NCBI GenBank assembly: GCA_964650355.1
Contig: CAZYTL010000002.1
Span: 6,964-70,963, forward strand
Reading direction: 5' to 3'
Length of the DNA stretch: 64,000 nt
Source of the DNA: an uncultured Gammaproteobacteria bacterium
GTDB lineage: Bacteria > Patescibacteriota > Microgenomatia > CAYXHB01 > CAZYTL01
Shown: positions 2,186-22,600 of the stretch, one piece after another
How the letters are laid out: every line of letters starts with the position of its first letter
Position numbering within the stretch: the first letter of the stretch is position 1
Made by a program: the position numbers and the translations under genes
Notes under the pieces: generated by a model
What the model was told of the DNA's origin: nothing
Seen by the model: only the letters and a program-made list of their open reading frames with translations
The model's database searches: none

Positions 2186-3196
2186 ATGGATATGGATCAA
2201 CAATTGAATAATATAAAAAACGAGGCTCTGGCTCTGATATTGGAAGCGGAATCTCAGGAAGAGTTGGAGCAGGTAAGAGTGAGATACTTAAGCAAGAAAG
2301 GTAATTTGAATCAGGTATTTTCTGAATTAATGCGATCAGCAGAGGATAAAAAACAACTGGGACAGGTGTTTAATCAAACTAAACAGACTCTGTTGGAAGC
2401 ATTGGAAGACAAACAGGCTCAACTATCAACGATGCCTGATGATAGGGAATGGTTTGATGTGACCAAGATAACGGATGAGACAGCAATGGGAATGATGCAT
2501 CCGATTAATCTGATGATTAGAGAAATGAACCAGTTTTTCCGTTCCTATGGATTTTCGGTGATGGACGGACCGGAAATCGAAAGTGATGAGTACAATTTTC
2601 AGAGACTAAATCTGCCGCCTGATCACCCGGCCAGGGACTTGCAGGATACGCTTTATATTAAAGAACCGAATATTCTCTTGAGGACTCATACTTCTTCTGT
2701 GGAAACCAGAGTAGTGGCTAAATACAAACCACCTTTCCGGGTGGTGGTGCCCGGGAAGTCATACCGCTATGAAACCATGAACCCCTCAAATACAGTGATG
2801 TTTTTTCAATACCAGGGTTTCAATGTAGAAAGAAACATTTCGATGTCTAACTTGAAGTGGATTTTAGAAAAATTTGTGCATTATTTTTACGGTACTAAAC
2901 AGGAGATGAGGTTTCGTTGTAAGTACTATCCAGAAGTCGAACCCACAGCCGGATTGGATCTGGCTTGTTCGTTCTGTAACAAAAAGGGGTGTGCGGTGTG
3001 TAAATACCGCGGATGGTTGGAAATGATCGGTTGCGGCATGATGCATCCTAATATTATGAAAACTGCCGGCATAGATCCTCAAAAATGGTCGGGATTCGCT
3101 TGGGGTATGGGACTGGATCGCCTGGTGATGACGAAATTTAATATTCCTGACGTGCGAATGTTGACCAACGGATCGATTACCTATCCAAATACATAA
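2186..3196 (+). CDS. pheS: Phenylalanine--tRNA ligase alpha subunit
   Basis: 336 aa with a class II catalytic core (FRSYGFSVMDGPEIESDEYNF, motif 2/3 regions). It is followed directly by pheT. Confidence 0.9.
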   Translation: MDMDQQLNNIKNEALALILEAESQEELEQVRVRYLSKKGNLNQVFSELMRSAEDKKQLGQVFNQTKQTLLEALEDKQAQLSTMPDDREWFDVTKITDETAMGMMHPINLMIREMNQFFRSYGFSVMDGPEIESDEYNFQRLNLPPDHPARDLQDTLYIKEPNILLRTHTSSVETRVVAKYKPPFRVVVPGKSYRYETMNPSNTVMFFQYQGFNVERNISMSNLKWILEKFVHYFYGTKQEMRFRCKYYPEVEPTAGLDLACSFCNKKGCAVCKYRGWLEMIGCGMMHPNIMKTAGIDPQKWSGFAWGMGLDRLVMTKFNIPDVRMLTNGSITYPNT

Positions 3197-3203
3197 ATTT
3201 TAT

Positions 3204-5993
3204 ATGTTAGTCCCGCTTTCCTGGTTAAAACGGTATGTAGAAGTGCCCAAGAGGTTGTCTGAGTTGACGGATAAATTGACTTACGCCGGGCATATGCTGG
3301 ATAAGGTGCTGCAAGTTGATGGTGAGACAGTGATCGACTTGGAACTGAGAGGAAATCGTGAAGATTTATTCGGAATTCTAGGCATTGCCAGGGAAGTAGC
3401 AGCTTTGTTCGATGTGCCGATTAACCTCCCCCAGGAGCCTGACTTGAATAAAATCCCGCAATCGAATTCCGGCAAGAAGGTGAAAGTCGAAGTGCAGGAT
3501 ACTGAATTGATCAATCGGTTCTTTTCTATTGAAATTACTGATCTGAAAGTTGGTCCTTCGCCCAAATGGCTGGAGCAAATTTTAAAACAGATGAGCACTC
3601 CGGCTATCAATAACGTCGTGGATGTCACCAATTACATCATGTTTCTCACTGCCCAACCGTTACACGCTTTTGACAGAAATAAAATTAATCAGGGAAGATT
3701 AATTCTTCGTCAGGGCGACGGAAAGCTAAAGTTCACGACTTTCGAAGGCACCCAAGTGACAGCAACCAAACAAGATTTGATTGCTAGCGATCCGGAAAAA
3801 TGCTTGGGGTTATTAGGGGTAATTGGCGAGAAATACTCCGGAGTAGGCAAAGACACCACTGCGATTTTACTGGAAGGAGGTAATTATAATCAGCCGAGTG
3901 TAAGAAGATCTAGTCGAAGACATAAATTAAGAACAGACGCGGCCTTACGTCTAGAAAAAAATATTGATCCCCTGCTTCCACCATATGCAGTGAAATTGTG
4001 TACCGAGCTGATCTGTAAGCTGGCCCAGGGAAAGGTGGTGGCCGGAAGCGTGGGTGATTACGAGAAAAAAAAGCATCATAATCCGTGGAAAACGATTTTA
4101 TTCACTACTGATGAAGTCAAAAGATTGGGCAATATGCAAGTTTCCCAAGAGGAAGCAAGAAACATTTTCAAACGGTTGGATTTACCGTCCAAATTGATAG
4201 GTGCCAAAGTTGAAGTGCAAATTCCGTGGAGAAGGTCGGATATTGAGGGAGAAGCAGATCTGGTTGAGGAAGTTTTAAGGGTGATTGGCTACGAAAATAT
4301 CCCCAGCGAACCGATCAGCAACCCGGTACCCAAATCTATCGAACCACCGCATTTGCTGTTGGAAGAAAAGGTGAGAGATATCTTGGTCGGACAGGGATTT
4401 AAAGAGAATGTGAGCGATTCGTTCATCAGCCAAGATGACCAGGAATTGTTTTTCGGAAGTCAAAGTCAGGCAATTAAGATTGTTAATCCTACTTCACCGG
4501 AAACTGCTTTGCTGCGCACTTCCCTACTCCCCGCCCAAATAAAATTGGTACAGAAATTATTAAATTTGCACAAGCAAAATATTTCCTGGTTCGAGATCGG
4601 AAAGGTATATTGGGAGACAAAGCAGTCGGATTCTAAAAGTAACTATCAGGAAGAGATTCATTTGTCAGGAGCGATAGTGCTGGGAATAGACACGGAAAAA
4701 TTTTACGGTCGATCTCTGGCAAAAATGAGACGATTGTTAAATTATTTGGGGATTTGGGATTTGAAAGTTCAACCTCAAGCTGATCATTTGCTGATGAGCA
4801 AAGAAGGATCTACAAGTATTTATCAGCAGCAAAGATTGTTAGTCCAGATGGGTTTGTTGCGCACGGACGTAAAACAAGCACTGAATATCCAACCGGATGT
4901 TTTTTTGTTTGATGCTAAGATTGATGATTTATTAAAAGCAAAGACTGAACTGCCTAGAGTGCTAGAATCTGACTATCCTCCCGTCATTGAGGATCTGACG
5001 TTTATGCTGCCTTCGGAAACTTACATTCAACCGGTGATCGATGAGATTTATGGCGTGGATAAATTAATTAATAAAGTCGACTTAGTTGACAGTTATGAAG
5101 ATGCCCGGACCTTTAGGATTTATTACCAAAGCCGGAAAAAGAGTTTAAGCGATAACGAAGTGGAACCAATTCGGATGAGGATTGTGAAGGACTTGGAAGG
5201 GAAATTTAAAGCTAAGTTGAAAGGGGAAATTTTAACAGCTACAAGAAAAACAGAGCAGCAAACTACTCGCCCAAAATCAATAAAAGACAAGAAGGATATA
5301 AAAACGGAAGCAATATATTATTCCAATCCATATCAAAAAGAGCTTGAATGTAGTGTACTCGCTATAGAATCAAAAGGAAATTTGTTAAATGTTATTTTAG
5401 ATAAGACTGTTTTTTACCCACAAGGTGGCGGCCAGCCATCTGATCACGGAATGATTGGCAAAGCCAAAGTCAAACACGTATTAATGTCAAAAGGTCAAAT
5501 AATTCATCAAGTAAAAGGCGATCTAAACGTAGGAGATAAAGTAAAAGCGTTTTTAGACTGGGAACGTCGATATAAGTATATGAAAATTCACACGGCAGGT
5601 CATTTAATTCATGATGCTTTCATGACCATGGTCGAGGATTTAGTACCCATTAAGGCTGACCACGGTGACAATGCTTATCTTGAATATCAGGGCGAGTTAA
5701 AGGTCAATTTAAAATCTCAATTAGAAAGGTTAGTCGATCAATATATTAGTGATGATTTACCTGTAACGACAAAACAGACCACCTATGAAGATTTAGTGAA
5801 AGACTGTCCGTTTGTACCTCAAAACTTGCCTAAAGATAAACCACTTAGGGTGATTAAAATCAACAATTTCCCAACCATGCCAGATGGTGGTGTACATGTC
5901 AAAAGTACTCAAGAGATTGGGTCTGTGGTGATAGAAAGCATCTCCTCTTTTGACAACAAGACGGTGGTCAAATATCGTGTTTTAAATTCTTAG
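3204..5993 (+). CDS. pheT: Phenylalanine--tRNA ligase beta subunit with a C-terminal AlaX-M-like (tRNA_SAD) editing-domain extension
   Basis: 929 aa. The B3/B4 region (NNVVDVTNYIMFLTAQPLHAFD), the B5 region and the FDX-ACB-like region are recognisable. The last ~240 aa carry FYPQGGGQPSDHG, HTAGHLIH and DGGVHV motifs, as in AlaX/AlaRS/ThrRS editing domains. Confidence 0.85.
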   Translation: MLVPLSWLKRYVEVPKRLSELTDKLTYAGHMLDKVLQVDGETVIDLELRGNREDLFGILGIAREVAALFDVPINLPQEPDLNKIPQSNSGKKVKVEVQDTELINRFFSIEITDLKVGPSPKWLEQILKQMSTPAINNVVDVTNYIMFLTAQPLHAFDRNKINQGRLILRQGDGKLKFTTFEGTQVTATKQDLIASDPEKCLGLLGVIGEKYSGVGKDTTAILLEGGNYNQPSVRRSSRRHKLRTDAALRLEKNIDPLLPPYAVKLCTELICKLAQGKVVAGSVGDYEKKKHHNPWKTILFTTDEVKRLGNMQVSQEEARNIFKRLDLPSKLIGAKVEVQIPWRRSDIEGEADLVEEVLRVIGYENIPSEPISNPVPKSIEPPHLLLEEKVRDILVGQGFKENVSDSFISQDDQELFFGSQSQAIKIVNPTSPETALLRTSLLPAQIKLVQKLLNLHKQNISWFEIGKVYWETKQSDSKSNYQEEIHLSGAIVLGIDTEKFYGRSLAKMRRLLNYLGIWDLKVQPQADHLLMSKEGSTSIYQQQRLLVQMGLLRTDVKQALNIQPDVFLFDAKIDDLLKAKTELPRVLESDYPPVIEDLTFMLPSETYIQPVIDEIYGVDKLINKVDLVDSYEDARTFRIYYQSRKKSLSDNEVEPIRMRIVKDLEGKFKAKLKGEILTATRKTEQQTTRPKSIKDKKDIKTEAIYYSNPYQKELECSVLAIESKGNLLNVILDKTVFYPQGGGQPSDHGMIGKAKVKHVLMSKGQIIHQVKGDLNVGDKVKAFLDWERRYKYMKIHTAGHLIHDAFMTMVEDLVPIKADHGDNAYLEYQGELKVNLKSQLERLVDQYISDDLPVTTKQTTYEDLVKDCPFVPQNLPKDKPLRVIKINNFPTMPDGGVHVKSTQEIGSVVIESISSFDNKTVVKYRVLNS

Positions 5994-6016
5994 TTAAAAT
6001 TTATTCCTTTATCCCA

Positions 6017-6190
6017 TCTTTGATTTTGCCATCGTGGATGTGGATTTGGTGCTTGGTGCGTTTGGCAACTAAAGAACTATGAGTGACGACTATGTTAGAG
6101 CTCTGGTAATGGCGGTGCTTTGCTGTCCGTCCCCGGAGATTTTATTGGGATAAAATTTTTTTAGGTGGGCAATGCCAAACCGATCCTTGA
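6017..6190 (-). pseudogene. Degraded partial duplicate of the ABC ATPase gene at 7251..7946 (C-terminal and signature-motif segments with an internal deletion)
   Basis: 6017-6066 is identical to 7283-7332 (50/50 nt). 6100-6190 aligns with about 7470-7565 at roughly 85% identity. About 105 bp are missing between the two blocks. No intact ORF remains. Confidence 0.55.
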
Positions 6191-6211
6191 ACACACACCA
6201 TGCACATTTTT

Positions 6212-7198
6212 CTATGCTCGCGTTTGGACGACCTGGTAAAGAGGTACTTCAAATTCTTGCTCGGTTCTTCTAAGAATCGGGTTATCGATTGGAAATTGTT
6301 CACTTTGCTTTGGAGGAGTACTTAACCCTATCCCCCCTAACGCTAAATACCTATCAACGTATAATCCCAAATTAGGTTCGCCTTTTTTGGGAAAGTAATA
6401 AGGAGCAAGAATGTTGCTAGGCCATACTCCATTAGGCTGATCTCCTAGCTTAGATAAAAAATAATCAGTTGCTTCGCTAGCCATACCTTGCTCTGCTAAA
6501 GGTTGTGCCGGATCCCAGGCCGAAACAATAATTATCTCTACTTTTTGTTGCCAAGCATCCTTTATTGGCTGCCGCAGTAATCCAATTTGTTCTGGTCCGT
6601 TTAGCATATTGACACGGAAACCTCGGGTATAACTTTTTCCTCCCAAACCAATTTGCGGTGGCCAAGGAGCTTTGATCGTGGCTTCTGTATATCCTCCCAT
6701 TAAGCTCGTCCAAGGAATTGTTACTATGCCAAATGCTCCTGTCTCACCACTACCAGTAATTTTTGCGTGCTGAAATAATACTTCACCTTCCAAATCGATG
6801 GTTGGTTTATATATCGATGTCGAATGTTCCAGATCTTGAATACTAACTGGTAAAACTTGATTTTTATCATCATCTTCTCTAACTTTATCCTTTAATGAAC
6901 TTGGTCTCGCCCTGAGAGGTTGGGGTTCACCAATCAACTCTACATCACCTTTCTTAATCCATTCAGCAAATGGCCCAAGGCGAGTATCTAAATAGAGAGT
7001 AGGAGATCTCTCGACATCTCTTTCAGGTGCTACCCGGGAAGAAGCTAACTCTTGTGAGTCAGGTGTGGGTATTAGACGACCTAATGCAGCACCTGCAGCA
7101 AAGATAGTTCCTGTCCTTATTGCTTCAAGTAGTTGTCTCCTAGTAATTCCTAACCTTGTCTTTTCATCATCAGGAAGGGCATTTTCTGCTTCGGTCAT
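6212..7198 (-). CDS. Secreted protein of unknown function with a twin-arginine (Tat) signal peptide
   Basis: 328 aa. The N-terminus TRRQLLEAIRTGTIFAAGAALG matches the Tat consensus (RRxLL plus an h-region). No recognisable catalytic motifs. Confidence 0.6.
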   Translation of the reverse strand: MTEAENALPDDEKTRLGITRRQLLEAIRTGTIFAAGAALGRLIPTPDSQELASSRVAPERDVERSPTLYLDTRLGPFAEWIKKGDVELIGEPQPLRARPSSLKDKVREDDDKNQVLPVSIQDLEHSTSIYKPTIDLEGEVLFQHAKITGSGETGAFGIVTIPWTSLMGGYTEATIKAPWPPQIGLGGKSYTRGFRVNMLNGPEQIGLLRQPIKDAWQQKVEIIIVSAWDPAQPLAEQGMASEATDYFLSKLGDQPNGVWPSNILAPYYFPKKGEPNLGLYVDRYLALGGIGLSTPPKQSEQFPIDNPILRRTEQEFEVPLYQVVQTRA

Positions 7199-15727: not shown

Positions 15728-16210
15728 TCATGTCTGAGTGTTGGCCCTGACGGAGACGGTCTGGTATTGAGTAAGATGTTTGAGGACTATTTGATTTTTG
15801 ATGTTAACTCCCTTGGTTTGATCGCCGGCACCCATGCTCCAGGTTTCCAAAGCGAATGCATCTTTATCGATGAGAATCGGTAAGTCCAGTACGAGAGGAT
15901 TAATCCCGCCCGGGTGGTAACCAAACTTGTTTTCTAGAGTTTGTTTGTCTACAACGCTCCATTTACCCACTATTTGTTTAAGTTTTGACTGATCAATTCG
16001 ATCATCGCCTTTGAGGATCACTGCCTTGAATCCGTCTTTTGTAGAAATAACCAAGGTCTTTATAGCAGTGTGTGGATCATAATTATTATCAATTGAAGTG
16101 TCTCTGGTTCGGGCCGAAACTGCTATGTCGGTGAAGGTTATTTCTTCGAAGGGAATCCCTCGTTGTGTGAGATTTTGTTTGATGATATCAAACGTGACTT
16201 CAGCTCTCAT
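15728..16210 (-). CDS. YbaK/ProX-type aminoacyl-tRNA trans-editing deacylase
   Basis: 160 aa with the YbaK-domain signature (GYHPGGINPL) and overall length typical of Cys-tRNA(Pro)/Ala-tRNA(Pro) deacylases. Confidence 0.7.
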   Translation of the reverse strand: MRAEVTFDIIKQNLTQRGIPFEEITFTDIAVSARTRDTSIDNNYDPHTAIKTLVISTKDGFKAVILKGDDRIDQSKLKQIVGKWSVVDKQTLENKFGYHPGGINPLVLDLPILIDKDAFALETWSMGAGDQTKGVNIKNQIVLKHLTQYQTVSVRANTQT

Positions 16211-16329: not shown

Positions 16330-17403
16330 TCAGTTTAGTGATTGTACATAATCTTTAAGTATCAAGCAATATGTTTCTAGGCTAGAAATATCTACCCATT
16401 CGTTGTCCGAGCCAATATTTCCGCCTTTTGGTCCAAATTCCACCCCTTCACAGTTAACTTTTATAAAATGTCTTACATCAGAAGATCCATGGGTCTTGTA
16501 AATGGTTACCTTATTATTGGTTATCTTTTTGGTTATTAGATGTAACTTCTTTAAATACTGATTATTTTTATCGACTGTGGTGGCAGGTTCGTCCACAACA
16601 ACTTTTACTTTGAAATCTTTGGGAACAAGTTCTTTAATTCTTTCTAAGATGGTATTGGCATCATTAGGAATAAAGCGAATGTCAAGCCACACAGTACAAT
16701 CATCCGGTATTTTATTAAACGAGTTGTTGTTGGTTTCAATTTTGCTTAGATTAACAGTAGTCTTCCATTGCTCTGAAATGGGTAAGGGAAAATTTTTTCT
16801 AAGAATGTTTAGAAATTTGTTCATTTTCCATAAAGCATTTTCTCCTCTCCAGAGGTATGCGCTGTGCGATGTCTTTCCGGAACAACTAACTTTTAAACAT
16901 AAAATTCCTTTAGCTTGATTAACAATGTTGAGATTCGTTGGTTCTCCCGTGATCACGAAATCTGCTCTAACTCCTTTATTTATCTGGTGTTTTGTGCCGT
17001 TAAATCCGCCAATTTGTTCGTCTGTTACCAGCTGTAAACCCAGAGGATAATTAACTTTATTAGCCATTTCCTTAAACACCATTATTAGGCAAGCGACACT
17101 GGCCTTCATATCTAGAGATCCAACACCAGATAATCTGTTCCTTTTTATGGTAGCTAGATATTGATGTTCCTTTCCTGGTATTACGTCAAGATGGCCATTC
17201 AGAATGAGCTTATACTTGTTTGAATTTATTTTTGGGCTATGGACCAAGACGCTTTTTATTCCTTGCTTTTCGAATCTTTCTACTTTAAATTCCCTTAGAT
17301 TTGATAGCGCAAGTTCCAGAATCTCATCCAATGCTGTTAAATTGTTAAAAGTAGATCTGATTGATATAAATTGTTTCGTTAAAGGTAAAATTTTGTCTAA
17401 CAT
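16330..17403 (-). CDS. M20 family metallohydrolase (ArgE/DapE/dipeptidase-like)
   Basis: 357 aa with the M20 metal-binding motifs GHLDVIP, GVGSLDMKAS and GEPT. The local GC content (about 35%) is clearly lower than that of the upstream gene. Confidence 0.8.
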   Translation of the reverse strand: MLDKILPLTKQFISIRSTFNNLTALDEILELALSNLREFKVERFEKQGIKSVLVHSPKINSNKYKLILNGHLDVIPGKEHQYLATIKRNRLSGVGSLDMKASVACLIMVFKEMANKVNYPLGLQLVTDEQIGGFNGTKHQINKGVRADFVITGEPTNLNIVNQAKGILCLKVSCSGKTSHSAYLWRGENALWKMNKFLNILRKNFPLPISEQWKTTVNLSKIETNNNSFNKIPDDCTVWLDIRFIPNDANTILERIKELVPKDFKVKVVVDEPATTVDKNNQYLKKLHLITKKITNNKVTIYKTHGSSDVRHFIKVNCEGVEFGPKGGNIGSDNEWVDISSLETYCLILKDYVQSLN

Positions 17404-17418
17404 AATTCTTGATTAATA

Positions 17419-19212
17419 TTACGATGAAATCGGAGCGGAAATCATTTCTCTTGTTCCATGAAGCCTTCCCATGTGAGCTTCTTCAGAATCCGATGGAACT
17501 AGGATTCTGATTCCACCCATAAATTCTGCACTGCCTCTCACTAAAGAGAAAAATGCTCTGTCCATAACCGCAAAAGTTGCTCCATTAGTACTATCATTTA
17601 CAACGAGAGATTCTATTTCGGGTTGAATTAGGTAAGGTCCCCTTAAGGCCAACATCTCCTTCAGCCATGATATATTACTACGATCGAAAAGATTCATGGT
17701 TTTTTGGCCATAACCGCCAAATACACCTTGCAATGGCTTGACTCGAAAGGCAGATAATTGTGACAACCCACGAGAATTCATAAAATCATTAAAGGTTTTG
17801 GTTACAGAAATTTTCTCGCCTTCAACAGACGCAACAACATCGTTGACGGCATCAACTCGAAAGCCCATAGCCATTAAGGGTAAAGCAACTTTGCTATCTT
17901 TTAAACGTTTTGGGTCGCCAATTGGCCAACCGGGATCATCGATATTTAAGGTGAGGGCATTTTCCCTTATTATTCTCCTCAAATTTGGATCTACCAATAA
18001 TGGATTTTCTACCCCTACTGTTGGATCTTTTAATTTAGATATCGGATCGGACGGACGAACATATAAAAGGCAATTGCATTGCCCACTATCTTGTTCTAAG
18101 TGTTTAAGAAATTCATCCGGCCCCCATAAGTCGTTAAAACCAGATATCTGAAAGACTTCTTCAGAGGTCAGATCCTGAACTCCTACCTTACCGAACTCAG
18201 TCTCCCGCATGTCTTCAAGCTTTTCTCTAGTCGGAGCAAGCAATACGATTGGCTTTTGATGTTGGGCTCTGATGATATCAAGTTGTTCTCTAAATCTAGT
18301 GCCAAGTAGTCCTCCACCGCCTAGTGTTTCTATCAACCCATACATAGCAATTGAAGGTTCGAATTCGAATATCCTGTCGCGTAAAGTGTTTATTACGTCT
18401 TCAGCACCAGGAGCGCCTGCTCCGGTGAGTAACTCTTGTGATAAACCAGCTATATCGACCTGAAAGAAAGGCTCTGTAATGTGACCACCGGTCATCCTTA
18501 CACAATGCTGGTATGCTAGTTTATGTCCTTCGTTATTTCCTGGAACAAATTGGGAAAAAACCCGTGCGTGCTCTTCAACCAACCTACTCAAACCGTCAAT
18601 GACTTTTGGCGGAAATCTAATTTGATAGTCTGGAGCATATTCGAAAGGTCCTAAGGTAGAAGGGATATCCTCTCGAGTGATGACGTTTTCAAGTCTTATT
18701 TTCTCTCCTGGTCGCGGTTGTTCTGAAGCGTAAGAGAACATTCTTGTTTCAACTACCTCCCGTATTGACATGGCACTCAGACCGTCACCGTTTAGTGCGT
18801 TTTGGCCTATTGCATGTAACCCAAGGTGAATAAAATCAGCATCTACTAGATGGCGAACGACCCTACCTCGGACCAGTGAATGATCCCAACCATGTCTTCG
18901 TACATCCTGAAAAAGGCTATCTTGAACATTCTGTGGTGTTATTCCTGCCAAATTTTTAGTCTGCGTGTCTTCAATTCCCTTGTCTGGGGGAAGTGGAATT
19001 AATGAAGGATCTTGCAATGCCTGGTTAACTCGCAAGTCACCTACCCGATTTAAGTCTTCCAGACAAGCCACATGAATTCCATTTTGTGCAGCCCACAACA
19101 CAATACCCTGAAACCTTGCTATCTGAACAAGTTTTTTCGGGGTAAGGCCAATCCCATTATTCTCTGCTATGAATGGGGATATTAAATGGTTGAATTCTAG
19201 TTGTTTTTTCAT
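17419..19212 (-). CDS. Uncharacterised 597-aa protein, possibly a ligase-like enzyme. It is the first gene after a T-box leader.
   Basis: Long intact ORF. It has a glycine-rich segment (ETLGGGGLLG) and a C-terminal FRVKPLQGVFGGYGQ loop that weakly resembles an ATP-grasp nucleotide-binding loop. It has no aaRS (HIGH/KMSKS or class II), Mur-ligase or adenylation-domain motifs. Confidence 0.35.
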   Translation of the reverse strand: MKKQLEFNHLISPFIAENNGIGLTPKKLVQIARFQGIVLWAAQNGIHVACLEDLNRVGDLRVNQALQDPSLIPLPPDKGIEDTQTKNLAGITPQNVQDSLFQDVRRHGWDHSLVRGRVVRHLVDADFIHLGLHAIGQNALNGDGLSAMSIREVVETRMFSYASEQPRPGEKIRLENVITREDIPSTLGPFEYAPDYQIRFPPKVIDGLSRLVEEHARVFSQFVPGNNEGHKLAYQHCVRMTGGHITEPFFQVDIAGLSQELLTGAGAPGAEDVINTLRDRIFEFEPSIAMYGLIETLGGGGLLGTRFREQLDIIRAQHQKPIVLLAPTREKLEDMRETEFGKVGVQDLTSEEVFQISGFNDLWGPDEFLKHLEQDSGQCNCLLYVRPSDPISKLKDPTVGVENPLLVDPNLRRIIRENALTLNIDDPGWPIGDPKRLKDSKVALPLMAMGFRVDAVNDVVASVEGEKISVTKTFNDFMNSRGLSQLSAFRVKPLQGVFGGYGQKTMNLFDRSNISWLKEMLALRGPYLIQPEIESLVVNDSTNGATFAVMDRAFFSLVRGSAEFMGGIRILVPSDSEEAHMGRLHGTREMISAPISS

Positions 19213-19317
19213 CTTTAAATCTGAAAATTAAAAGATTAGTTTGTATATAGAGCTGGACTCTATCTGGACGAAAACGCTACAGACCGGCGCGTTGTCGTTC
19301 TGCCACCTGCGGGCATT

Positions 19318-19363
19318 AAAAAAGCCCTTACGAATTCTCAAGATATTAAGAATTCGCAAGGGC
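19318..19363 (-). terminator. Intrinsic terminator hairpin of the T-box leader
   Basis: On the minus strand: gcccttgcgaattc - ttaatatcttga - gaattcgtaagggc, followed by UUUUUU. This is a 14-bp stem with one G-U wobble pair. Confidence 0.6.
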
Positions 19364-19741
19364 CATCTTTATAAGCTATCAGCGATAAGCTAACAGCTAA
19401 GGTAGGCGGTACCACCTTGCTTTACTAACTCAATAAAAAAACACCATGGTCACTGGTGTTTACCGTCATTGAGGTAGTCTCAATTATTCACGTACTTGAC
19501 GGTGTGATTTGCCGTTGGGCAATTCACTTTGCAGTGATACGTTAGCGCTATGACGGGCGCGCCCGTTCTCGATCTGTGGTCGGGAAGGCTCAACAGGGTA
19601 ATTCATTTTTTCTTGTGCGTCAGGTCTTGCACCAATCGCCTGATCTCTGGTGTCACCAAGAGAAAACTACTTCACTGTTTCACAGCCTTTATTAATTTTT
19701 CAGTATTGAGGATTATATAATAGATACAAAGCAAAAATCAA
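19318..19741 (-). promoter_or_regulatory. T-box riboswitch leader (promoter, stem I region, T-box core, antiterminator/terminator) upstream of the 17419..19212 operon
   Basis: The minus strand has a promoter TTGATT-N18-TATAAT (plus coordinates 19736-19741 and 19712-19717). The T-box core AAGGUGGUACCGCC (plus 19401-19423) matches the AGGGUGGNACCGCG consensus. Its flanks AAGG...GCC can pair with GGC-CCUU, which is the 5' arm of the terminator, giving the classical mutually exclusive antiterminator and terminator. Confidence 0.55.
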
Positions 19742-19780: not shown

Positions 19781-21472
19781 TTATACCTCGATGATCACCG
19801 GTAAAATCATGGGATTGCGTTTGAGCTGTCGGGCAAAGAATTTTTGTAGTACTTCAGAGGTCCTTTCTTTGATTAAATGCCAGTCAGTCAGCGGCTGTTC
19901 AGGAGACTTAAGGGACTGGGTGACCAGTTTTTTGGCTTCGGTTAAGAGGCCTTCCTGACCTTTAAGGTACACAAATCCCCTAGTGATGATGTCGGGTTCG
20001 TTAACCAGTTCCTTGGTATTGACATCCAGTTGAAGTAGAACTACTACAACCCCTTCTTCTGCCAGTACTTGGCGATCCCGCAGCACCACATTGCCTACGT
20101 CCCCTACTCCCAGACCGTCGATCATCACGTTGCGCACATCGACTGGTTTGCCTAAATATATGGATTGGGAGTCGAGATGCACTGAACGATTGGTAGTGGG
20201 TAGGAGGACTTGGTCGGTCTTGTAACCCATGTTTTCCGCCAGGATACGGTAGTGGACCATGTGGCGATAGGTACCGCCAATCGGTAATACAGCCCGAGGT
20301 CTGGTCAGCCCGAGAAGAAGTTTGAGGTCGGCTTGTGATCCGTGTCCGGAAACGTGCAGGTCATCCTTGATATCAGCATAGGTGACAGTGGCACCGTCTT
20401 TGTAGAGAGCATCAATAGCCGCATGAATTGAAGTCTCTGAGCCGGGGATGTAGTCGGTGGAGAAAACGACTTTATCGCCCTGTTTAATTTTTACATTGCG
20501 ATGTTCGCCGGCGGCAATGCGCTGCAAGGCTGACCCTGGTTGTCCCTGACTGCCGGCTACTAATAGGGTTAGTTGTTGATCAGGGTATTTATTCATTTTA
20601 TCCATGGGGACCATCAATTCTTGCTTGAGGTGAATATAGCCTAGTTGCATGGCGATTCTTAAGTTGCTTTCCACCGAGCGACCCACGCTGACGATTTTGC
20701 GCCCTCGAGAAATGGACACGTCAATGGCCTGCTGCCAGCGGGAAATGCTGGAAGACATGGCGGTGACAATGAATTTGCCTTTGCAGGTGGCAATTTCCCG
20801 GTTAAACATTTCGTATAGATCTAGTTCTGACCTGGTGGCGCCCTGTCGTTCACTCCCTAAGCAATCGGAGATTAATAAGTCCACTCCTTGATTGCCTGCG
20901 GCAGCGATTTTGCCGACTTCTGGCTGGATACCGTCAACCGGAGTCCAGTCGAATTTGAAATCCGCCCCGTGGTAGATATTGCCAACGGGGGTTTGGATAT
21001 AATAGTGATAAGTATCAGGTACAGAATGTGTCACCCTAATGGGTTGGATTTTATAATTACCCAAGGTAATGGTTTGATTGGGATTAAGTACCTGGACGTT
21101 GCGAGGAATTTGATATTCCTGAAGTTTGCTTTGAGCAAATGCAGCAGTCAGTTTGGAGGTGTAGATGGGAAATTCGGGCAGGTTGGGCAACACATAAGGC
21201 AAAGCACCCACGTGATCTTCATGACCATGAGAGATGACCATGCCTTTAATTCTTTGTTCTTTACCCTTGAGGTAATAGGTATCAGGAATGAGCAGATCAA
21301 CTCCTAACATTTCTTCCGTGGGAAAGCCGATGCCGCAATCAACTATTAAGATGTCCCCGCCATTGGGAAGTTCGTAAGCAAACATGTTGCGGTTAACTTC
21401 ACCAAAACCTCCAAGAGAAGTGATCTTAAGAGAAGATGACGAATTAGCCGAAGAATTGTTTCGTTTGGACAT
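19781..21472 (-). CDS. rnj: Ribonuclease J (metallo-beta-lactamase / beta-CASP RNase)
   Basis: 563 aa with the HGHEDHVGALPYV motif, a beta-CASP region and a C-terminal domain. Confidence 0.9.
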   Translation of the reverse strand: MSKRNNSSANSSSSLKITSLGGFGEVNRNMFAYELPNGGDILIVDCGIGFPTEEMLGVDLLIPDTYYLKGKEQRIKGMVISHGHEDHVGALPYVLPNLPEFPIYTSKLTAAFAQSKLQEYQIPRNVQVLNPNQTITLGNYKIQPIRVTHSVPDTYHYYIQTPVGNIYHGADFKFDWTPVDGIQPEVGKIAAAGNQGVDLLISDCLGSERQGATRSELDLYEMFNREIATCKGKFIVTAMSSSISRWQQAIDVSISRGRKIVSVGRSVESNLRIAMQLGYIHLKQELMVPMDKMNKYPDQQLTLLVAGSQGQPGSALQRIAAGEHRNVKIKQGDKVVFSTDYIPGSETSIHAAIDALYKDGATVTYADIKDDLHVSGHGSQADLKLLLGLTRPRAVLPIGGTYRHMVHYRILAENMGYKTDQVLLPTTNRSVHLDSQSIYLGKPVDVRNVMIDGLGVGDVGNVVLRDRQVLAEEGVVVVLLQLDVNTKELVNEPDIITRGFVYLKGQEGLLTEAKKLVTQSLKSPEQPLTDWHLIKERTSEVLQKFFARQLKRNPMILPVIIEV

Positions 21473-21508: not shown

Positions 21509-22600
21509 TTACCAGGTGGGTAGATAGCTTTTGACGTTATCAGTGGTAATATGGAATTTATCTCCTTTACCTTCGACGATTTGACGGGCAACTTTGCGAC
21601 AAACACCGTTAATGGTTCTTTCCAGAGTTCTGATTCCAGCGTCAAAACCCAGAGGGCGAATGATTTTTGGCCAGACCTCCTCATCGATCTCTACTTGTTC
21701 TGGTTTAAGCCCGGAATCTTTTAACATTCTGGGTAAGACGTAGTCCTTGCCAATGTGATATTTTTCGTCATCGGTGTAGGAAGGCATCTGAATAACTTCC
21801 AACCTGTCAAGAACAGCAGTTGAGATTTTGGCGGTATTATTGGCAGTAGCAATGAACAGACATTGGGATAGATCAAAGGGATAATCTATGAAGTGGTCTG
21901 TAAAAGCGTAATTTTGCCCCGGGTCCAGAAGTTCGACCAAAACACCCATGATGTCAGCCCGGGCGTGTTCTGCTACCCGGTCAATTTCATCCAGCAGGAC
22001 GACCGGATTCCTGACTTTGGACTGGCGCATGGCTTTGATAACCCACCCAGGCTCGGCGTCGGGACGGACTCGGGATTGACCACGCAAAGTTAAGGCGTCT
22101 CCCATGCCGCCGAAGGGAATTCTCACAAAAGGTCTGCCCATAGCTTGGGCAATGGAATAGGAAATGGTAGTCTTACCAGTACCTACCAAACCGACGAAAA
22201 ATAAGATGGGAGCCCGCATCATATCGCGGGCAAACTCTTCTTCTGATTTATCTCCGATTTGTTGACGTTTTAAATTCATGACCGCGATGTATTCCAGGAC
22301 CCGATCTTTGATGAATTCTAATCCGTAGTGGTGCTCATCTAAAACTTTTTTCGCATGATTAAGATCTAAAATGTCGTCAGCGCGCTTTGACCAAGGCAGA
22401 TTAGTAATCCAGTCTATGTAGCGGTTAACTTGTTCAAATTCTTGAGAATAAAATCCATATTTAGCCATGCGGCTCAGCCTGCCCAGCATGCCAACGACTC
22501 GCTCTTTCAGGTCTTGAGGGGCTGATGACTTCTCAAGTACGGCTTCTAAATCTTCGACTTCTTTAAAGATATCGGTATCTTTGGAAGAGTTATCAGGCAT
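21509..22600 (-). CDS. Lon-like AAA+ ATPase without an S16 protease domain
   Basis: 363 aa. It has the Lon ATPase core (HYGLEFIKDRVLEYIAV, GLVGTGKTTISYSIAQAMGRPFVRIPFGGMGD, VVLLDEIDRV). It ends 36 nt before the rnj start, with no protease domain and no long Lon N-domain. Confidence 0.75.
   Translation of the reverse strand: MPDNSSKDTDIFKEVEDLEAVLEKSSAPQDLKERVVGMLGRLSRMAKYGFYSQEFEQVNRYIDWITNLPWSKRADDILDLNHAKKVLDEHHYGLEFIKDRVLEYIAVMNLKRQQIGDKSEEEFARDMMRAPILFFVGLVGTGKTTISYSIAQAMGRPFVRIPFGGMGDALTLRGQSRVRPDAEPGWVIKAMRQSKVRNPVVLLDEIDRVAEHARADIMGVLVELLDPGQNYAFTDHFIDYPFDLSQCLFIATANNTAKISTAVLDRLEVIQMPSYTDDEKYHIGKDYVLPRMLKDSGLKPEQVEIDEEVWPKIIRPLGFDAGIRTLERTINGVCRKVARQIVEGKGDKFHITTDNVKSYLPTW

Follow-up and report, generated by a model that had tools for sequence, protein, structure and literature searches.

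The window analysed here, a 64,000-nucleotide (nt) stretch of a genome from the Candidate Phyla Radiation (CPR, Patescibacteria), carries on its minus strand a T-box leader between the gene rnj (21472..19781(-)) and a small operon that starts with the gene of a 597-residue protein. We consider it very probable, judging from the sequence, that this leader is a working class I T-box riboswitch that attenuates transcription and is specific for tRNA-Tyr. A first-pass annotation had proposed a T-box at this place, and the covariance model of the Rfam T-box family (RF00230) bears out this identity. The model aligns over its full length (1-219 of 219) to 19692..19396(-) with 69.8 bits and an E-value of 5e-15 for a 701-nt region, or 4.6e-13 for both strands of the 64-kb window, in which it is the sole Rfam RNA family at E <= 0.01. 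From the homology of the leader, its motifs, its alternative pairings and its gene context, we infer that it regulates transcription. The RNA mechanism is an ordinary one, that of a class I transcriptional tyrS-type T-box; the unusual parts are the host lineage and the cargo.

Alignment to RF00230 with Infernal places Stem I at 19687..19587(-). The first-pass annotation had tied its proposal to a foldable Stem I from which a codon could be read, and all the motifs of this stem aligned with high posterior probability. They comprise a basal GGC/GCC helix with the GA motif of a K-turn (UGA...GAG), a helix AACAG/CUGUU, the specifier-loop motifs AGUA (19671..19668(-)) and GAA (19604..19602(-)), the AG bulge AGAGA (19648..19644(-)), and the distal loop GCGAUUGGUGCAAGA (19639..19625(-)); the codon reads UAC. 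Compared with the leader of a sister locus from Dojkabacteria (L001; related loci are numbered with the prefix L), 7 of the 22 predicted Stem I pairs have changed on both sides while the pairing was kept. In the same alignment, Stem I is followed by a short Stem II with one mismatch (19586..19566(-)) and by the Stem IIA/B pseudoknot element (19565..19545(-)), which consists of the hairpin CGG-GCGCGC-CCG and the sequence AUAGCGC. By eye, the IIA/B loop can pair with downstream bases as GCGC:GCGC in the window, as UCGCU:AGCGA in L001 and as UCGAU:AUCGA in L060, the last two differing by a compensatory change.

Two large elements separate the pseudoknot from the T-box sequence. A linker of about 57-66 nt (19544..19479(-)) is an insertion relative to RF00230, and its minimum-free-energy fold contains two small hairpins, CACU/AGUG and UUGCC/GGCAA. 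It leads to an elongated two-tier Stem III (19478..19424(-)), which folds at -20.1 kcal/mol (z = -3.6) and in which an outer helix, ACUA.CCUCAAUG / UAUUGAG.UUAGU, encloses the GC hairpin AAACACCA-GUGACCA-UGGUGUUU. This inner 8-bp GC hairpin with its U7 tract (19461..19433(-)) lies upstream of the T-box sequence and scores as an intrinsic terminator. Because the same two-tier design with a U-run, in unrelated sequence, is also found in L049, L050, L051, and L060, the long terminator-like Stem III is a conserved feature of the lineage; this comparison uses individual folds, the window sequence having been misplaced in a MAFFT alignment. In the glyQS T-box, pausing sets kinetic checkpoints (PMC13001445), and by analogy the hairpin and U-run of Stem III may serve as a programmed pause site or a second checkpoint.

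The T-box core AAGGUGGUACCGCC stands where the first-pass annotation had located it (19418..19405(-)), with 13 of 14 bases matching, and is conserved across six leaders. It belongs to an antiterminator at 19420..19356(-) that is formed by helix A1 (GCAAGG/CCUUGC), a 7-nt bulge UGGUACC with the UGGU at 19414..19411(-), and helix A2 (GCC/GGC). Helix A2 is split by a 40-nt insertion containing a 10-bp hairpin (19398..19374(-)). The 3' strand of the antiterminator, GGCCCUUGC (19364..19356(-)), is also the 5' arm of the intrinsic terminator at 19364..19323(-), whose U6 tract ends at 19318, and the two structures thus exclude each other as had been claimed. The terminator hairpin (-28.7 kcal/mol) has a loop UAUC and a stem of 19 bp instead of the 14 bp given earlier; the terminators of L001 and L060 follow the same design with 20 bp. 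With the antiterminator pairs imposed, folding of the segment gives -23.7 kcal/mol, and its unconstrained minimum is -24.1 kcal/mol. The long-range antiterminator is preferred since it overlaps the terminator at a cost of only 0.4 kcal/mol. A pairing of AAGG with the nearby CCUU (19401..19398(-)), as drawn by Infernal, was rejected as the antiterminator because it has no overlap with the terminator.

Upstream of the leader, the sigma-70-type promoter TTGATT-18 nt-TATAAT reported by the first-pass annotation is present at 19741..19712(-), with its -35 box at 19741..19736(-) and its -10 box at 19717..19712(-), and it matches 10 of the 12 consensus positions. The pattern by itself is no commoner in the sequence than in shuffles (2 observed vs 2.0 expected). 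Two sister loci have promoters with the same spacer and at the same distance from the leader, ending 20-26 nt upstream of the start of the T-box model: TTGACA-18-TATAAT in L001 (12/12) and TGGACA-18-TATAAT in L060 (11/12). The window site is presumably a working promoter, with a predicted transcription start near 19705. We found no terminator after rnj, and read-through from rnj would therefore meet the same switch.

The specifier codon UAC (Tyr) at 19600..19598(-) follows both from the columns of RF00230 and from the TBDB rule, according to which the codon occupies positions 2-4 counted from the 3' end of the specifier loop (PMC7778990); in the loop strand GAAUUACC, these positions hold UAC. 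We regard the comparison with the sister loci as the decisive evidence for the predicted tyrosine specificity. Both GAAUUACC and UGGU are identical in the leaders of L001/L005 (99.4 bits) and L060 (97.3 bits), which score above the Rfam gathering score. Behind the leader, L001 and L060 each have a tRNA-Tyr(GUA) gene whose base A73 fits UGGU and agrees with the discriminator base A that had been predicted from this bulge. L049 has a partial, 5'-truncated T-box, and its tRNA-Tyr(GUA, A73) starts 15 nt past the terminator.

These three tRNA-Tyr genes (L001 1337-1423, L049 251-336, and L060 660-743) are all located between the terminator of the Tyr T-box and the first open reading frame (ORF). As there is no promoter-like site on the plus strand between terminator and tRNA in L001 or L060, the tRNA seems to lie inside the regulated unit. 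From this arrangement, the riboswitch appears to control the gene of its own ligand in L001, L049, and L060. Nothing evident on T-box-controlled tRNA genes was found among the listed titles of a literature search restricted to open-access full text, which makes this a weak absence.

The window itself retains what looks like a remnant of the same arrangement. Within the 105 nt between the terminator and the start codon, a decayed tRNA-Tyr gene (19314..19243(-)) still contains GGUGGCAGAaCGaCAAcGCgCCgGUCUGUA and is in register with the tRNA-Tyr genes of L001 and L049. Its anticodon stem is broken, its T arm is deleted and its acceptor pairing is gone, and it is therefore a pseudogene; ARAGORN reports no tRNA gene in the whole window. 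Local alignment of the relic to the L049 tRNA gave a score of 25, reached by 2 of 2000 shuffles, and the alignment to the L001 tRNA was weaker (reached by 53 of 2000). The tRNA at this position has also been independently truncated in L051, at a different place, and has been lost entirely in L050.

Several observations speak against a working tyrosine switch in the window. At gathering thresholds, Rfam yields zero matches in the entire window; RF00230 surfaces as a significant match in E-value mode only, its 69.8 bits missing the gathering score of 93, which is an operational Rfam cut-off and no structural feature. We attribute the shortfall to the three large lineage-specific insertions in the alignment, in the linker, Stem III, and helix A2, and these sizeable departures from RF00230 are themselves unfavourable. 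The base after the specifier codon is C and not the usual purine. The 64-kb window shows no tRNA-Tyr, tyrS or dtd gene, and since the neighbouring tRNA has decayed, decay of the leader too is conceivable from the sequence. These features might be taken to mean that the leader is decaying and has lost its switching function, with its operon constitutively terminated or driven from elsewhere. We consider this improbable. The conserved motifs are all intact, from the K-turn, AGUA/GAA, AGAGA, and the distal loop to 13 of the 14 core bases and UGGU, and helices have been maintained by compensatory change. L001 and L060 likewise have a C behind the codon and a long Stem III, and their leaders pass the gathering score. 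Moreover, the antiterminator is still energetically competitive, and a 19-bp terminator without a working antiterminator would silence a conserved and intact gene pair. A further doubt concerns the reading frame of the specifier. The loop strand GAAUUACC contains UUA, UAC, and ACC, the missing purine leaves the frame less anchored, and A73 would also be compatible with tRNA-Leu, so that an overlapping triplet within UUACC, either ACC (Thr) or UUA (Leu), or a dual specificity might be envisaged. This is very improbable in our judgement, because the column homology and the TBDB frame rule both yield UAC, a tRNA-Tyr(GUA) gene comes after three sister leaders, and TyrRS is encoded in the operons.

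With a functional tRNA-Tyr T-box as the preferred reading, regulation could proceed as follows. Transcription would start near 19705, and Stem I would use the specifier UAC and the distal-loop platform to bind tRNA-Tyr(GUA). The free 3' end ACCA of an uncharged tRNA would pair with UGGU in the bulge and lock the antiterminator at 19420..19356(-), so that the polymerase could continue into the genes, described below, of the ligase, the M20 hydrolase, and probably the YbaK-like protein. With charged tRNA, the 19-bp terminator followed by U6 would form instead, and the transcript would end at about 19318. The ancestral unit of this CPR clade probably began with the T-box(Tyr) and tRNA-Tyr, and its further genes included tyrS, dtd or a YbaK-like gene. 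The window would then represent a remodelled unit, in which the tRNA has decayed and from which tyrS is absent.

The first regulated gene (19212..17419(-)) encodes the 597-residue protein, which has no match in Pfam, NCBIfam or the PDB sequences. Its relatives comprise 18 word-indexed homologues and 187 clusters at 50% identity, and all homologues with a named source come from CPR genomes; the assignment of the host to CPR in this analysis is based on such homologues. Residues ~168-597 correspond to a conserved ATP-grasp acid-amine ligase-like core, and the fold of this catalytic core resembles the ATP-grasp acid-amine ligases of the GspS / YgiC / eukaryotic GS type; the N-terminal ~167 residues are a variable helical extension of low confidence in the structural model. 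We read the protein as a putative ATP-grasp acid-amine ligase with a glutathionylspermidine-synthetase-like fold. Within the family, the N-terminal extension ranges from none (434-residue forms) through about 170 residues (window) to about 530 residues of helical repeats (Levybacteria and Daviesbacteria), all of low confidence in the model.

The second gene (17403..16330(-)) begins 15 nt after the ligase gene and encodes an ArgE/DapE-like M20 metallohydrolase with Peptidase_M20 and M20_dimer domains. The best NCBIfam model is the subfamily TIGR01910, at 159.8 against a cut-off of 217.6; the protein belongs to the M20 fold family and stays far below all DapE/ArgE equivalog cut-offs. About 35 of 38 CPR loci have an M20 gene (44-62% identity) directly behind the ligase gene, and the two genes are a conserved module. 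Metagenome scans for close relatives brought up none beyond L051; the genes of the window also occur in Logan SRR14802573. Apart from core matches in L028, a T-box before this module is confined to the subclade of the window: a fuzzy search of the 1.5 kb before the ligase gene, covering 38 other CPR loci, brought up no T-box core that could be read as belonging to a ligase leader. In L028, the core matched three times with 2 mismatches and a T-run was close by, matches that were neither folded nor scored against Rfam. At L007 3494-3740, we noticed a weak T-box-like element with a short Stem I (29.9 bits), a UGGC bulge, and its own terminator. It comes right after a YerC/TrpR-like gene and precedes a gene for a small membrane protein rich in Cys; a 959-residue ligase homologue is encoded about 0.7 kb downstream of the element.

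A stand-alone YbaK-like protein of 160 residues, of the tRNA_edit / INS superfamily, is encoded 119 nt after the M20 gene (16210..15728(-)). There is no terminator-like site between 19318 and 15728(-), and this gene is probably the last of the transcription unit. The protein scores 60.2 bits with PF04073 (tRNA_edit) against a cut-off of 25.5, and only 47.5 bits with the YbaK equivalog TIGR00011, whose cut-off is 153.25. By these scores, we assign it to the tRNA_edit superfamily but not to YbaK proper. A 536-residue fusion protein from L001 (1447-3057) combines an N-terminal YbaK-like domain with a TyrRS of the archaeal/eukaryal type (NF006330, 401.8 bits), and the 160-residue protein shares 53% identity with this N-terminal domain. 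At L059 863-6426, a YbaK-like gene stands in an operon with genes for a DAHP-synthase-like protein, a chorismate mutase, an aminotransferase, and a TyrA-PDT fusion, and is followed by an NYN-domain gene and the start of TyrRS. In L060, a homologue is found behind another T-box(Tyr)-tRNA-Tyr unit. On the basis of the L001 fusion and the L059 and L060 contexts, the YbaK-like subfamily is consistently linked to tyrosine and TyrRS. TyrRS is regarded as having no editing domain. No title or abstract on a YbaK-like domain fused to TyrRS came up in the literature search, again a weak absence with open-access full text only. The L057 locus (5315-6468) hints at a link of the subfamily to D-amino acids: its YbaK-like homologue, with 62% identity, is translationally coupled to an amino-acid racemase gene (TIGR00035, 169.6 bits), the overlap at the stop of the racemase gene being 4 nt.

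Two side observations concern these loci. The L059 operon is preceded by a weak match resembling a Phe leader, at 40.6 bits vs 55. Between tRNA-Tyr and the YbaK-like gene of L060 (885-2943), proteins of 428 and 260 residues are encoded that have no family matches; the former shows a weak C-terminal match to the S4 domain (E 0.06), reminiscent of the tail of bacterial TyrRS. The 428-residue protein was also considered as a member of the ligase family, and a profile comparison was negative (probability 0.2%).

The gene that follows M20 varies among the loci with this arrangement, being the YbaK-like gene in the window, a YbaK-like fragment in L050, dtd in L049, and tyrS in L051. The remark in the first-pass annotation that the operon includes no classical T-box target thus holds for the genes of the window, but not for its close relatives, where this leader is found ahead of tRNA-Tyr, tyrS or dtd within one string of genes. 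As a best guess, held with much lower confidence than the identity of the RNA, the cargo serves the supply or the quality control of tyrosyl-tRNA. More speculatively, the YbaK-like protein might be a trans-editing factor for tRNA-Tyr and possibly a functional analogue of DTD. D-Tyr-tRNA would be the obvious candidate substrate because dtd occupies the same operon slot in L049 and because of the racemase linkage in L057. Equally speculative is the idea that the ligase-M20 pair carries out a ligation and a de-acylation step linked to aromatic amino acids. These suggestions can be joined in a broader, tentative proposal, which we would not call likely: the CPR clade might run a self-contained tyrosyl-tRNA module under one T-box, comprising in its complete form (L001, L049, and L060) its own tRNA-Tyr, a hitherto unrecognised TyrRS-associated YbaK-like editing domain, the ligase, and the M20 hydrolase, and the window might be a derived version with only the cargo under tRNA-Tyr control. 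In such a module, the editing domain, fused to TyrRS in Dojkabacteria, would be a proofreading partner, perhaps replacing DTD, and the ligase and M20 hydrolase would perform an ATP-dependent step in the supply or detoxification of tyrosine or aromatic amino acids.

The main rival explanation is concerned with this cargo, not with the RNA. The T-box might work for tRNA-Tyr, tyrS, and the editing factor, and the ligase-M20 pair might be a mere passenger unrelated to tyrosine, which is a real possibility even if we do not favour it. About 35 other CPR loci have the pair without a T-box within 1.5 kb upstream, which leaves its tyrosine role circumstantial, and the neighbours of the pair are mostly unrelated housekeeping genes. 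In L060, moreover, the slot of the ligase-M20 pair between tRNA-Tyr and the YbaK-like gene is taken by a different cassette of two unrelated genes. These facts count against a tyrosine function of the pair. On the other hand, the window, L049, L050, and L051 retain an intact T-box core and terminator right before the pair, even where the tRNA has been lost or truncated. An aromatic theme also recurs among the exceptional neighbours: the pair lies beside pheST in L004/L009, and beside a prephenate dehydratase gene and a second M20 gene in L015, L025, and L026, the prephenate dehydratase carrying an ACT domain in L015 and L025.

The leader closely resembles the class I T-boxes of Firmicutes, as exemplified by the Bacillus subtilis tyrS leader (RF00230). 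It has the full order of domains from Stem I to the competing antiterminator and terminator, and it shares with the tyrS leader the specifier UAC and a UGGU that would match A73 of tRNA-Tyr; the operons of its relatives also contain tyrS. The window differs from the Firmicutes examples in its CPR host, in the C after the codon, in the linker insertion of ~60 nt, in the two-tier terminator-like Stem III, and in the 40-nt A2 insertion. Its cargo includes no gene for an aminoacyl-tRNA synthetase, for biosynthesis or for a transporter, and in its relatives the regulated unit begins with the tRNA gene of the ligand itself. The staphylococcal glyS T-box tolerates a lineage-specific hairpin in helix A2, stem Sa, which modulates read-through (PMC9177973). 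The A2 insertion of the window is analogous in position to stem Sa, whereas the specificity (Gly in glyS) and the host differ, and the likeness implies no role in tRNA discrimination. The insertion was seen in the window alone; A2 is short in the sister leaders and extended in L049. No paper linking T-box riboswitches with Patescibacteria or the Candidate Phyla Radiation was retrieved from open-access full text, which is likewise a weak absence.

As for the cargo, the 160-residue protein shares the tRNA_edit fold family PF04073 with YbaK and ProXp of the INS superfamily and, through the position of dtd in L049, an operon place with DTD. Unlike YbaK and ProXp, its subfamily is partnered not with ProRS but with TyrRS (fused in L001, adjacent in L059), with T-box(Tyr) leaders, and with the TyrA-PDT operon. 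The nearest systems for the ligase are the ATP-grasp acid-amine ligases glutathionylspermidine synthetase, YgiC/YjfC, and eukaryotic glutathione synthetase, and the logic of its pairing with M20 is similar to that of LysX/LysK, also an ATP-grasp ligase and an M20 hydrolase.

Two other features of the window may be recorded. At 2186-5993(+), pheS is followed by a 929-residue pheT product, in which the last ~100 residues match the C-terminal portion of the Pfam model for the AlaRS catalytic core (tRNA-synt_2c, E 2.6e-12); no T-box precedes pheS. A 363-residue protein encoded at 22600..21509(-) matches only the AAA+ and lid part of Lon (252-571 of 795), and no protease domain was found in this ORF.

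In summary, the window contains a complete and apparently working T-box in CPR that standard Rfam annotation at gathering thresholds has overlooked. Because a T-box reports the amino acid that its operon serves, the leader offers a functional handle on two CPR-restricted and unannotated families, the ligase with its M20 partner and the YbaK-like proteins tied to TyrRS. If TyrRS does have an editing domain, whether appended or associated, the textbook view of this synthetase as an enzyme without editing would need revision, and a T-box driving the gene of its own tRNA ligand would be an unusual feedback design.

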